Below are positions 22,057 through 56,814 of a stretch of DNA of 64,000 nt, one piece after another. The stretch is from IMG/VR virus record IMGVR_UViG_3300044960_000113, positions 96,001 through 160,000 of that record. One strand, 5' to 3'. How positions within the stretch are numbered: the stretch's first letter is position 1; every line of letters starts with the position of its first letter. The notes beneath the pieces are model-generated. The model was not told the origin of the DNA, made no database searches, and saw only the letters and a program-made list of their open reading frames with translations. The stretch comes from a virus. A program made the translations under genes and the position numbers.

Positions 22057-22151
22057 TGGTAGTCCCCCACGGTTACGATCCGTGCCGTTCCAGCCAATCT
22101 AGCCGGTCTCGCGAGTTTATAAGACTCGCCCGCTCACCAGAGCTGAGGACT
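22057..22151 (-). tRNA. tRNA-Ile(TAT) with long variable arm, T-loop ATCGTAA
   Basis: AGTCCTC/GGGGACT acceptor, GCGAGT CTTATAA ACTCGC, ~25-nt variable region, CCA. Confidence 0.75.
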
Positions 22152-24730: not shown

Positions 24731-25076
24731 TGGTGCCACCACCCGGAGTCGAACCGGGATGACCTAATTAGTCGACGGATTTTAAGCGGTTTTTTCCTAA
24801 CGTTTCCATTAGGCCCGGACTATCTCTTCACCTTTCATTTCTGTTAAGGTGATGGGCGTTCTAAGCTGGTTATTAAGAGGACTCAGAATCATTTTAAATA
24901 AGACTCTACCTCTCCAGTAGTCTCTACACCTTCAAATGATGTATCATTTGCTTGGCTCGCGATCGCCATTTTTAACAGGCTCTCCCGAATTAACCCATTG
25001 TTCACTTTGATATTTCTATCAAAGGCGGACTAGGTCGTTACCTTTCCGTTGCGTCTACCAATTCCGCCATGGTGGC
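24731..25076 (-). tRNA. tRNA-Leu(TAA) interrupted by a group I intron
   Basis: 5' exon 25045-25076 (GCCACCA..ACGGA) and 3' exon 24731-24786 (CTTAAAA TCCGT, V-arm, T-arm, CCA) join to a perfect type II tRNA-Leu. Confidence 0.9.
24787..25044 (-). ncRNA. Group I intron (258 nt, no ORF)
   Basis: P/Q/R/S core: AATTCGGGAGAGCC, GGCGATCGCGAGCCAAGC, GAAGGTGTAGAGACTA, GAAGAGATAGTCC; terminal G. Confidence 0.9.
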
Positions 25077-35879: not shown

Positions 35880-35969
35880 TGGGGTGTATGGCCGGACTCG
35901 AACCGGCTATATCCTTTAGGAACTGTGTTTCACAGACACAGGGCGCGACCACTTTGCTCTTCATACACC
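35880..35969 (-). tRNA. tRNA-His(GTG) with G-1:C73 and an extra variable hairpin
   Basis: GGTGTATG/CATACACC, TGTGT CTGTGAA ACACA, TCCT-AA-AGGA in variable region. Confidence 0.85.
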
Positions 35970-36414: not shown

Positions 36415-36504
36415 TGGCTGTCCAGGCAGGGATCGAACCTGCGTAAGTATCTCTACTCTCTCCGCTTAACAGGCGGGGCCGTTACCAACTCCGGTCACTG
36501 GACA
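36415..36504 (-). tRNA. tRNA-Asn(GTT) with long variable arm
   Basis: CCCGC CTGTTAA GCGGA, variable GAGAGTAGAGATACTTAC, G73, CCA. Confidence 0.85.
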
Positions 36505-45084: not shown

Positions 45085-45163
45085 TGGTCCGGAAGATAGG
45101 ATTTGAACCTACATGATTCCATTACTCTTTCTACAGTTTCGAAGACTGAGGAGATACTTCCGG
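45085..45163 (-). tRNA. D-armless tRNA-Arg(TCG) with expanded variable region
   Basis: CCGGAAG/CTTCCGG; 7-nt connector TATCTCC; CAGT CTTCGAA ACTG; 20-nt variable region; T-arm; CCA. Confidence 0.75.
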
Positions 45164-51857: not shown

Positions 51858-52100
51858 TTAATTTTCTTTAATAACTTTTTCAATTTTATTTAAAATACGT
51901 GATTTAATTCTATAACTAATCATATCTGAAACAATATCTAATATAGTTCCTATTTTCTGAAAATCATTAAAGTTTTCTAACTTAAAACTAAATTCTTGAC
52001 TATTTACTACAAACGTAGCAATACCAGATAAATCATTTGGATCTGAAGATCCTTTCCATGATTCTTTAACTAATTCTCTATTAATAGGTATATGTTTCAT
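51858..52100 (-). CDS. Hypothetical protein
   Basis: ORF track. Confidence 0.5.
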   Translation of the reverse strand: MKHIPINRELVKESWKGSSDPNDLSGIATFVVNSQEFSFKLENFNDFQKIGTILDIVSDMISYRIKSRILNKIEKVIKEN

Positions 52101-52102
52101 AA

Positions 52103-52270
52103 TTATACAAACTCCAACAAATCAAAAATATAATCTGGTTCTAAACCAAATTCTTCATAAAGAAGCTCTTCTGGATCAGACATATCTTTTGTTGCATCTT
52201 TGATCCACTGAATGACTTCCTGCTCTGTCATATCTTCACGTTTCATTAATACTCGTACCATATTATTCAT
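52103..52270 (-). CDS. Small acidic hypothetical protein (55 aa)
   Basis: Not in track; GGAGG RBS; MNNMVRVLMKREDMTEQE..EEFGLEPDYIFDLL. Confidence 0.65.
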   Translation of the reverse strand: MNNMVRVLMKREDMTEQEVIQWIKDATKDMSDPEELLYEEFGLEPDYIFDLLEFV

Positions 52271-52362
52271 TATTTCCTCCATTCGTAAACTTCACACATT
52301 CCATATTCACCTTCAAATTATCTCCAATGTAGATTATTTCCCATTATATCTTCCTTTGTGTT

Positions 52363-52437
52363 TGGTGGGCCCTCTCGGATTTGAACCGACATATTTCGAA
52401 TTATGAGTTCGGTATTTTATCATTAAATTGCAAACCC
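52363..52437 (-). tRNA. tRNA(CAT) (Ile2 or Met) whose 5' half is supplied by the end of the endonuclease ORF
   Basis: GGGTTTG..ATTT/AAAT D-arm, CGAA CTCATAA TTCG, T-arm, AGGGCCC A CCA. Confidence 0.65.
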
Positions 52438-53069
52438 GCATATGTTCCATTTCGTATTTCGGCGATTTCTTTTTTCTTAATAACTATTAATTTTCTTGGA
52501 AATTGTTGCCATTTTGCTCTATCTCTGTCTGTTTCGTATCCTTTAACCTCAATAAATACATCCAATTGTGGTAAATAAAAATCTGGATAGTACTGTCTAA
52601 TTCCATTCCATTCATATTCAAATGAATTAAAACACCTTTCTATAATTATAGATTTATTTAAGCAATATTCATAAAACTCAAGTTCCCATTTTCCAATAAA
52701 TTTTAAACCATATTTTGTTATTTGTTTTGCTCTTCCTCTATTAGAAGATGTGTATGATTCTGGATTATTTTTAACAGCCAACTTCATTGCCCTAGAATGT
52801 TGTTCTCTAAGAGCTTTTGTCCATATTCTATTTTTTCCACTTTTACCCATCTTTGCTCTTGATTCATCACTAATGAAAACAGGAATTCCAGTTTCTTTAG
52901 CTTTTGTGAATTGATTAGAACCATGTCCTTTTCTAGAATGCATACTTTCATACCATTTATCACTTGGTCTTGGTACTTGTCTATTAGGATTATTTTTACA
53001 ACGTCTCTCATGATTTTTTAGTGAATTAGAATTCTTACATTCTTTATAACAAAAATTACATAATAGCAT
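52401..53069 (-). CDS. Putative homing endonuclease (Zn finger plus PD-(D/E)xK)
   Basis: CNFC..HERRC zinc finger; YYPDFYLP..FIEVKG; TATAAATA at 53094-53101 and GGAGG RBS. Confidence 0.8.
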   Translation of the reverse strand: MLLCNFCYKECKNSNSLKNHERRCKNNPNRQVPRPSDKWYESMHSRKGHGSNQFTKAKETGIPVFISDESRAKMGKSGKNRIWTKALREQHSRAMKLAVKNNPESYTSSNRGRAKQITKYGLKFIGKWELEFYEYCLNKSIIIERCFNSFEYEWNGIRQYYPDFYLPQLDVFIEVKGYETDRDRAKWQQFPRKLIVIKKKEIAEIRNGTYAGLQFNDKIPNS

Positions 53070-53110
53070 AATATCTACCCTCCTTTTATATGCTATTTAT
53101 AATTATATAG

Positions 53111-53144
53111 GAGTCCGCCGCTCTCACCGCTGAGCTAAAGACCC
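53111..53144 (-). pseudogene. Orphan 5' half of tRNA(CAT)
   Basis: GGGTCTT TA GCTC AGCGGTGA GAGC G GCGGA CTC; pairs with the acceptor strand at 52367-52373. Confidence 0.8.
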
Positions 53145-53150
53145 ATTTAT

Positions 53151-53339
53151 TTATCGTTTAGTAATATTTAAATATGCATTAATTGGAAATAGAATCATTA
53201 TCAATATTATAACCCCAATTGTATACCAATCTGCTTTATAAAGTTCGTTGCACCCCATCAATTGGCACCAATTTGTGTTAAATATAAAGCCTAGAATGAA
53301 ACAAAAAATACACGATACATAAAAATATAAAAATCTCAT
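53151..53339 (-). CDS. Hypothetical membrane protein
   Basis: Two hydrophobic segments. Confidence 0.5.
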   Translation of the reverse strand: MRFLYFYVSCIFCFILGFIFNTNWCQLMGCNELYKADWYTIGVIILIMILFPINAYLNITKR

Positions 53340-53356
53340 TTTATAATTACCTATTA

Positions 53357-53542
53357 TTAATGTTTTATTATATCATAAATATCAAATAATATTTTAGTTA
53401 ATGCCTTATCAGAAAATTGTCGTTTTAAAGAATGAAATCCAGTATGTTGCATACATCTTTCAGATAGCTCGTTCTTAAACAACATATAGCAATGTCCACC
53501 ATCTGGATTTTTCTTATGATTACAAGTTTTGCAAGTATTCAT
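53357..53542 (-). CDS. Small Cys-rich hypothetical protein
   Basis: CKTC..GGHCYM..C. Confidence 0.5.
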   Translation of the reverse strand: MNTCKTCNHKKNPDGGHCYMLFKNELSERCMQHTGFHSLKRQFSDKALTKILFDIYDIIKH

Positions 53543-56372: not shown

Positions 56373-56481
56373 CGCCTATGGTATATGGGTTAATATTGAC
56401 ATTATAACACAAAAATAAAGAAAAGTATATAAAATATTTATTTAATATTATTAATTTTTTTAATAAAGATAGTTAAAATAA

Positions 56482-56760
56482 AATGCAAGCTGATTTGATG
56501 ACAAGGACAGCTTGCGAAACCTCGTGGTGATTACGCTGCTAGGCGCATCTCTCCAAAATATTCATCATTTGCTGCATTTATTTTAGTTTTGTCTTCTCAA
56601 TAACGGCTTTAGACATTGCCGAGCGCCTTTTATTAGTACTAATCGTTACCACGTCGAAACCATATACCACCCCATATTAAAATTTTAATCTATTGGTGGA
56701 GTGGGCGGGAATCGAACCCGCGTCCGCAATAACTTTCCCTTATAAAAGGTTTACGCTGTT
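56482..56760 (-). ncRNA. ssrA: Two-piece (circularly permuted) tmRNA
   Basis: Acceptor piece ..GACGCGGGTTCGATTCCCGCCCACTCCACCA (ends 56694) precedes coding piece GGGGTGG..TTCGAC (starts 56673); G3-U70; tag ANDEYFGEMRLAA* at 56531-56572. Outer ends approximate. Confidence 0.93.
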
Positions 56761-56814
56761 TTACTACATTTACACAAACGCCAATTTGTGTTCTTTATTT
56801 GTTATATTTATATT

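Follow-up and report, generated by a model that had tools for sequence, protein, structure and literature searches.

Integrative elements (prophages, integrative and conjugative elements, and genomic islands) use tRNA genes as insertion sites and bring along a copy of the end that they displace. Homing endonucleases usually spare their host by way of self-splicing introns, inteins or intergenic sites. SegB of phages T4 and T6 is a free-standing GIY-YIG homing endonuclease encoded in a tRNA gene cluster; its homologues are statistically associated with tRNA genes, and there is microhomology between the 3' end of segB and the 5' end of a tRNA (PMC2330249; PMC13096335; PMC2988022). I-Ssp6803I is a PD-(D/E)xK homing endonuclease of a group I intron in the Synechocystis tRNA-fMet gene, as given by Bonocora & Shub 2001 through the citation in PMC3984707 (structure PDB 2OST), and mobE, situated in nrdA of Aeromonas phage Aeh1, is a case of 'genes in pieces' by the account cited in PMC2988022. 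For I-TevI, SegB and mobE, a hairpin hides the ribosome-binding site (RBS) in read-through transcripts, and late transcripts that begin in the loop expose it (PMC2988022). Here we compare with these systems a locus in positions 96,001-160,000 of IMG/VR virus record IMGVR_UViG_3300044960_000113, 64,000 nt of a giant phage that we refer to as the window. At this locus a tRNA(CAU) gene is split by an insert that encodes a nuclease, whose open reading frame (ORF) ends within tRNA(CAU) sequence, and we consider it quite probable that the locus represents one copy of a mobile cassette, widespread among phages, that spreads by intronless homing and replaces the tRNA(CAU) gene it targets. The phage occurs in hot-spring mat samples. 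The parent record measures 184 kb, with an estimated completeness of about half, and apart from the cassette locus there are 32 other tRNA genes and one transfer-messenger RNA (tmRNA).

At 53111-53144 on the minus strand lies a stranded 5' half, positions 1-34 up to C34 of the resident tRNA(CAU). Its acceptor strand is 7 nt long and leads to U8; the D arm is GCTC/GAGC and its loop contains GG, and after the D arm come the 5-nt 5' strand of the anticodon stem and CTC. The half matched an nhmmer half-tRNA profile at E=6.6e-07. A tRNA 3' half, which from its pairing with the stranded half is probably the resident gene's own, lies at 52363-52404 on the same strand and reads in order ATAA, anticodon-stem strand, variable loop, T arm, acceptor 3' strand and ACCA. 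The insert between the two is 706 nt long. When 53144-53111 and 52404-52363 were united in silico, ARAGORN called a 76-nt tRNA-Met(cat), and the acceptor strand of the stranded half forms 7/7 pairs with the 3' strand at 52373-52367. An earlier note on this DNA had described a clean tRNA 5' half here and the 3' half 700 nt downstream, and both were recovered where it had put them. With introns permitted, ARAGORN (-i) reported a single gene at 52363-53144 with the 706-nt insert, as a tRNA-Arg(cct) with a 706-nt intron; we rejected this call, and with it an intron of the archaeal type, as an artefact, because the junction is ambiguous between CTCCTA and CTCATA and relatives show CAT as the common anticodon. 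Sister runs of the same sample contained a variant at window position 53141 (plus-strand G for A), which puts C in place of U at position 4 of the stranded half and makes the U4-G69 pair a Watson-Crick C4-G69. Neither a second copy of the nuclease nor another tRNA(CAU) gene (by ARAGORN and Rfam) was found in the 184-kb record.

The ORF occupies 669 of the 706 nt of the insert, and the inventory given in the earlier note, namely a TATAAATA box, an RBS and a Zn-finger/PD-(D/E)xK ORF with no group I core, was borne out. No Rfam match to a group I or group II intron was obtained in 52000-53500, even at E<=10. The tRNA-Leu(UAA) gene of the window (24731-25076, minus strand) has a 258-nt group I intron in its anticodon loop according to ARAGORN -i, at the classical cyanobacterial/plastid intron position. 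This intron served as the positive control and was detected in the same search mode at 62.9 bits (Rfam RF00028, 24796-25041), and therefore the negative intron result at the cassette carries weight. A whole-window Rfam scan in gathering mode missed the tRNA-Leu(UAA) intron, presumably through its filters. Four placements of the junctions restore CTCATAA, and in these an intron would end in A, C, T or C, never in G. A group I or group II intron at the locus was thus rejected on two counts: there is no Rfam match, and the rule of a U-ending exon with a G-ending intron is not obeyed.

The ORF encodes 222 amino acids (52401-53069, minus strand, stop codon included) and matched PHROG 15137, annotated 'endonuclease', at E=2e-23. 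A search of NCBIfam gave no family for the protein, a single-sequence search of the PDB returned nothing useful, and Pfam matches were sub-threshold overall, with weak zf-C2H2 matches to the finger. In an alignment of 42 homologues C4, C7, H20 and C24 are invariant; these residues and the model define an N-terminal CCHC zinc finger at residues 4-24 (52998-53060, minus strand), with a mean pLDDT of 96 for the block of residues 1-30. A helical middle region, also a feature of the family, leads on to a PD-(D/E)xK nuclease domain at residues 112-210 (52440-52736, minus strand), in which E129, P162-D163, E174 and K176 are invariant across the same 42 sequences. The family profile aligned E129/D163/E174/K176 with the E..PD..ExK residues of T7 endonuclease I (PDB 1M0D) at a borderline E value of 0.015. 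The AlphaFold model of the protein has a mean pLDDT of 86.5, falling below 50 at residues 217-222, with a mean of 39 for the final block. Fold matches of residues 112-222 were to I-Bth0305I (Z 7.5), Vsr (7.4), Bax1 (7.2), TnsA (6.9), Hjc (5.5) and I-Ssp6803I (5.1). Z values below 8 are middling, yet the list is coherent, as the C-terminal domain matched PD-(D/E)xK enzymes only and the top Foldseek matches belong to the same superfamily. The invariant catalytic residues together with the modeled fold place the nuclease in the PD-(D/E)xK superfamily, with a predicted restriction-endonuclease-like alpha/beta core. The ORF is intact and keeps all of the invariant residues.

The end of the ORF enters a tRNA(CAU) with an encoded CCA (52363-52437, minus strand; Rfam RF00005). 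The overlap, at 52401-52437 on the minus strand, takes in the acceptor 5' strand, the D arm, the anticodon-stem 5' strand and the loop, so that the first 37 nt of the tRNA double as the last 12 codons of the ORF and its stop codon. The anticodon CAT is at 52405-52403 and the stop TAA at 52403-52401, which is U36-A37-A38 of the CTCATAA loop. On RF00005 the segment 52437-52366 scored 38 bits against a gathering score of 29, in local and whole-window scans alike, in agreement with the earlier claim that the last codons of the ORF fold as a replacement tRNA 5' part with the TAA in the CAT anticodon loop. The tRNA also aligns arm for arm with 44 cassette tRNAs from the family described below. Since the residues of the protein tail are unconserved and have pLDDT values below 50 at 217-222, it is the tRNA and not the protein that sets the sequence of the overlap.

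Given the AT-rich coding sequence, in which stems form easily, and the failure of ARAGORN to call this tRNA on its own, the likeness of the ORF tail to a tRNA 5' half might be accidental. We searched both strands of the window for 5' halves able to pair with this 3' half and found only 9 among 128,000 positions. These 9 include the stranded half and the ORF tail, the latter exactly in register by the loop, and chance resemblance can therefore be dismissed. The relatives point the same way, in that a tRNA(CAT) stands at the equivalent position of the ORF in most of them (see below) and the D arms of the nearest ones are similarly AT-rich (GTTA/TAAC in L015, for instance), leaving accident with a negligible probability.

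A profile scan of IMG/VR yielded 156 stretches that encode relatives of the nuclease; 80 loci were analyzed, of which 66 are distinct, and 49 phage records had a nuclease match. The first four IMG/VR relatives (50-67% identity) contain a stranded 5' half ending in ..ACTC, a nuclease and a tRNA(CAT), in the same order as in the window. A tRNA is present at the end of the ORF in 56 of the 66 distinct loci, and 53 of those 56 have the CAT anticodon. Comparison with related phages, which the earlier note had put forward as a check, thus shows the same layout recurring. The ORF enters the tRNA in 48 loci, stopping inside it in 37 and reading through the whole of it in 11. The last base of the stop falls at tRNA position 10 in 19 loci (a TAG formed by U8-A9-G10) and at positions 37-39 in nine, as it does in the window. 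The idea in the earlier note of a selfish nuclease with dual protein/tRNA coding therefore stands in part: an intron-less cassette does interrupt the anticodon loop of a tRNA(CAU) gene, with a substitute 5' part in the bases of the ORF tail and the stop in the loop. It is not an invention of this phage, as the layout is the standard one of a large family, and the amino acids of the tail are unconserved.

Remnants of the interrupted gene were found on both sides of the cassette. A stranded 5' half was detected in 24/68 loci versus 0/69 control segments, and with the exception of one locus it ends 16-51 nt upstream of the ORF start. At several loci the stranded halves are reduced to 5'-truncated stubs. 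Downstream of the cassette tRNA, resident 3' stubs consisting of T arm, acceptor and CCA are present at L016, L022, L042 and L063, with 7/7 pairing to the stranded half. The motif ACAAAGCATCTTT, or a near variant of it, occurs directly 3' of cassette tRNAs that lack an encoded CCA and before the resident 3' stub; motifs of this type were seen at L013, L016, L040, L045, L048, L063, L065 and L071, and may act in processing or delimit the cassette on its right side.

The 45 distinct cassette tRNAs share one cloverleaf, in which changes on both sides were found in all 21 pairs, with a covariation term of -8.1 kcal/mol. Compensatory changes in every pair imply that the cassette tRNAs are under selection for structure. 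The cassette tRNAs and the stranded halves differ in the D stem. Pair 13:22 is C-G in 5/45 of the former, while GCTC/GAGC is found in 16/20 of the latter; the D stem of the window's cassette tRNA is ATTT/AAAT and that of the near relative L015 is GTTA/TAAC.

Cultured phages provided filled and empty versions of the same site. Kuttervirus SJ3 has an intact tRNA(CAT) gene; PhaxI, whose flanks are 99% identical to those of SJ3, keeps only tRNA positions 1-27, the rest having been replaced by the nuclease and a tRNA(CAT) of another sequence. Lazarusvirus Konradin likewise has an intact gene, annotated tRNA-Ile (L096, 527-603), and in Acinetobacter phage Apostate (L008, 1426-2168) the cassette lies exactly in the anticodon loop of a Konradin-type tRNA-Ile2-like gene. 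Intact alleles in cultured relatives are annotated either tRNA-Ile2 or tRNA-Met. The occurrence of filled and empty sites at the same locus of otherwise near-identical genomes, in the PhaxI/SJ3 and Apostate/Konradin pairs, demonstrates that the cassette is mobile. Two further phages bear on the choice of site and of nuclease. Tequatrovirus F25 (Escherichia phage vB_Eco_F25; L006, 2470-3230) has a nuclease of this family at tRNA-Arg(UCU), where T4 has segB, together with a 5'-truncated tRNA-Arg stub ending in CTTCT, a strong RBS hairpin, and an ORF whose stop TAA lies within the anticodon loop of the downstream tRNA-Arg. Escherichia phage CBA120 (L095, 814-1292) has an unrelated HNH homing endonuclease gene at the Kuttervirus tRNA(CAU) site, and its ORF overlaps a tRNA that has a new 5' half and a 3' half identical to the resident allele of SJ3. 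With the HNH gene of CBA120 and the PD-(D/E)xK gene of PhaxI at the Kuttervirus site, two unrelated nuclease families share both the site and the trick. For the window's own phage, exact-match scans of IMG/VR with the stranded half and with the 3' half gave no matches, and no joint spanning the cassette was seen in the DNA contigs of the sequencing runs, which contained only the same phage with a few strain variants. Among the runs listed for the locus there was no RNA run.

The Apostate insertion has AT duplicated at the junction and comes without a replacement tRNA, so that its split gene is either dead or rescued by some RNA-level route. The earlier note had offered, as an alternative for the window, that the halves are trans-assembled or ligated. 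By this account the stranded half is a working exon, and the resident halves are joined as RNA, whether spliced or cleaved and then ligated by RNA-repair enzymes. Ligases for tRNA repair are encoded by T4-like phages. An RNA ligase gene is located near the Apostate locus, and the window has both halves in full, with a perfectly paired acceptor stem, as have Apostate and AsFcp_4. Against such joining, no ribozyme was found at the cassette by a search that found the control intron, and no junction that restores CTCATAA gives a U-ending 5' exon with a G-ending intron. Joining is impossible in most relatives, whose resident 3' part has been truncated or replaced; at several loci the stranded half has itself decayed; and the 53 loci with tRNA(CAT) supply a complete, covarying second tRNA. 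The alternative is therefore not supported, and we regard RNA joining in the window as very improbable, with replacement by the cassette the better account of the family.

The window locus has no separate 3' stub, and its one 3' half serves both potential 5' partners, forming 7/7 acceptor pairs with the stranded half versus 6/7 with the strand in the ORF tail. Across the family, nuclease distance correlates with that of the downstream tRNA 5' half (rho 0.28, p 0.0015) and is uncorrelated with that of the 3' half (rho 0.03, p 0.37); for the stranded halves, a Mantel test against nuclease distance could draw on only 8 loci, too few to be of use. The tRNA of CBA120 is a proven chimera of a cassette-borne 5' half and a resident 3' half. 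Because the 3' half in the window pairs better with the stranded half, and in view of the 53141 variant, the linkage of the 5' half to the nuclease and the CBA120 analogy, the window tRNA is probably also a chimera, with a cassette 5' half and a resident 3' half brought together by a crossover inside the tRNA.

Between the stranded half and the ORF are the sequences that may control expression of the nuclease. A Shine-Dalgarno sequence, AAGGAGG, is located 9 nt upstream of the ATG (53079-53085, minus strand), and the TATAAATA box, which fits the T4-type late-promoter consensus, is at 53094-53101 on the same strand. RNAfold predicts a hairpin at 53080-53113 (minus strand) that has the promoter box in its loop and whose stem pairs CTCCT, formed by the end of the tRNA half and the first two bases of the cassette, with AGGAG of the RBS. 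The T4-type arrangement of a late promoter inside an RBS-hiding hairpin is thus found here by prediction. Most relatives have a TATAAATA-like box (or ATAAATA / CTAAATA) within the hairpin loop, and pairing of the junction CTCC with the RBS GGAG is predicted for the window as well as for many relatives with a stranded half. This role in the hairpin may account for the junction-proximal end being the best-kept part of the stranded half.

Taken together, these features would fit the following sequence of events, in which cleavage, immunity and homing are modeled on SegB (PMC2330249) and on further systems of intronless homing (PMC3984707). The target of the free-standing CCHC + PD-(D/E)xK nuclease would be the anticodon-loop region of tRNA(CAU) genes, and in a mixed infection the enzyme would cut a cassette-free tRNA(CAU) gene. 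Repair would then be templated by the cassette-bearing genome, the homology arms being the tRNA 5' half on the left and its 3' part on the right. The outcome would be a resident 5' half, followed by the hairpin with its late promoter and RBS, the nuclease ORF and the cassette tRNA. The cassette tRNA would preserve CAU decoding and would presumably remain uncut because of its differences from the target, which lie mainly in the D stem. The ORF lacks a stop of its own and terminates at the first in-frame stop in the tRNA, here the UAA at 36-38. The CTCC junction would act as the anti-Shine-Dalgarno arm, so that translation from read-through transcripts is silenced and translation from the late promoter allowed.

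A number of observations weigh against this picture. The TATAAATA sequence is not enriched in the AT-rich window (36 occurrences observed versus 29 expected), and the hairpin is weak, at -5.0 kcal/mol by RNAfold, with -10 to -20 kcal/mol for the equivalent hairpin in relatives. A search for a cassette-free relative of the window's phage by way of its flanking genes gave one non-syntenic locus and otherwise none. The case for a chimera is built on two base pairs that discriminate, a single strain variant and an analogy. Apostate and AsFcp_4 have the nuclease without any replacement tRNA, and thus compensation is not obligatory. Finally, the ORF-tail tRNA is the weakest seen, at 38 bits, whereas the four relatives that were scored have cassette tRNAs of 59-63 bits; its position 8 is C in place of U, the D loop has one G only, and the pairs 7:66, 27:43 and 49:65 are mismatched.

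This last group of defects, along with the missing ARAGORN call and the existence of type-B relatives that tolerate a split gene without a substitute, is what would be expected if the tRNA were dead, that is, if the resident gene had been destroyed, the tRNA in the ORF tail were a decaying relic, and the phage relied on its host for CAU decoding. This possibility concerns function only and is compatible with the locus being a cassette. Set against it, the score exceeds the Rfam gathering score even at the scale of the whole window, all four arms are present, and the ATTT/AAAT D stem is a fully paired variant of the covarying D stems of the family. The 27:43 mismatch is frequent in the family, being broken in 11/45, and the intact nuclease ORF with all of its invariant residues suggests a young copy. 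No other tRNA(CAU) was found in the record. We consider a dead tRNA somewhat unlikely, and take the window to be a somewhat decayed member of the cassette family with an unusually deep overlap of ORF and tRNA.

It is tempting to speculate that the ORF may be fused to the tRNA for regulation as well as for compaction. RNase P, in maturing the tRNA, would cut the nuclease mRNA 9-37 nt before the stop, which would make each processed transcript a non-stop message whose tmRNA-tagged product would be degraded, and nuclease dosage would become inverse to tRNA maturation. The end of the stranded half would contribute as the anti-Shine-Dalgarno arm and perhaps, near the late promoter, as an operator for the nuclease. 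The non-stop part of this speculation, which the earlier note had put forward, is logically sound and fits the family-wide overlap, although for the device as a whole we would give a low probability. The window also encodes a permuted phage tmRNA at 56440-56786 (minus strand), 3.3 kb from the cassette (Rfam RF04321, 92.7 bits; ARAGORN tag AANDEYFGEMRLAA).

Several other tRNA features of the window, all on the minus strand, depart from the usual form. A tRNA-like gene at 45088-45163 was detected by Rfam only (33.1 bits), with a CTTCGAA loop, an aberrant D region and no ARAGORN call. ARAGORN also called three overlong tRNAs: Ile(tat) of 95 nt (22057-22151), His of 89 nt (35880-35968) and Asn of 90 nt (36415-36504). 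Only the Asn span passes the Rfam gathering score (42 bits), and these three may hold insertions or be miscalled.

The family suggests a third solution, for RNA genes, to the problem that homing poses for the host, in addition to splicing elements and intergenic sites: the target is cut and overwritten with a linked, presumably cut-resistant copy. If true, this would explain the orphan tRNA halves and 'pseudo-tRNAs' in phage tRNA clusters, the nuclease ORFs that are annotated as overlapping tRNA-Met in published genomes such as those of PhaxI, Kuja and CBA120, and part of the fast turnover of phage tRNA sets. The cassette tRNAs and the resident targets are natural pairs of presumed uncut and cut sites that could be used for mapping the specificity of the nuclease, and through the overlap of the ORF with the tRNA, a coupling of tRNA processing to mRNA fate could be put to the test.

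Among known systems, SegB resembles the cassette as a free-standing nuclease in a phage tRNA cluster that cuts the tRNA genes of relatives lacking it, favors inheritance of its own tRNA region, and has a late promoter and an RBS-sequestering hairpin. The two differ in that GIY-YIG and PD-(D/E)xK are unrelated folds, and SegB recognizes a T-psi-C motif and is located between tRNA genes. The publications on SegB considered here describe neither a split resident tRNA nor a stranded half, nor an ORF that ends inside a replacement tRNA of the same anticodon. I-Ssp6803I shares with the cassette the PD-(D/E)xK fold (at the Z of 5.1 given above), a target in the anticodon region of a CAU tRNA gene, and the location of the element in the anticodon loop. 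There is no detectable sequence relationship between the two nucleases. The damage done by I-Ssp6803I is undone by a self-splicing intron, while the cassette has no ribozyme and makes up for the damage in the DNA itself, through a second tRNA or a new 5' half. By the account cited for mobE, that gene is also free-standing, intronless, placed inside a functional gene and controlled in its translation by a hairpin; in that case, as cited, the halves of the protein reassemble after translation, whereas the target of the cassette is an RNA gene and a replacement is supplied.

In integrative elements, as in the cassette, the mobile DNA's own sequence restores the interrupted tRNA gene. Such elements use integrases and attP/attB sites and replace the 3' end, in contrast to the cassette, which likely uses a nuclease and recombinational repair and replaces the 5' part or the whole gene. 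T7 endonuclease I (1M0D) and Vsr / I-Bth0305I (PDB 1CW0, 3R3P; PMC2677866) resemble the cassette nuclease in their core fold and in the alignment of the E/PD/ExK residues. T7 endonuclease I is a junction resolvase and not a site-specific homing enzyme, and the CCHC finger and the helical middle region are additions of the cassette family. A literature search for a cassette that splits a tRNA gene and has a linked replacement tRNA into which its ORF reads found none, returning only the SegB work and general reviews. The association of SegB with tRNA genes, a PD-(D/E)xK homing enzyme in a tRNA intron, and control by a hairpin have all been published before; we regard the split-and-replace layout as a new form of intronless homing.

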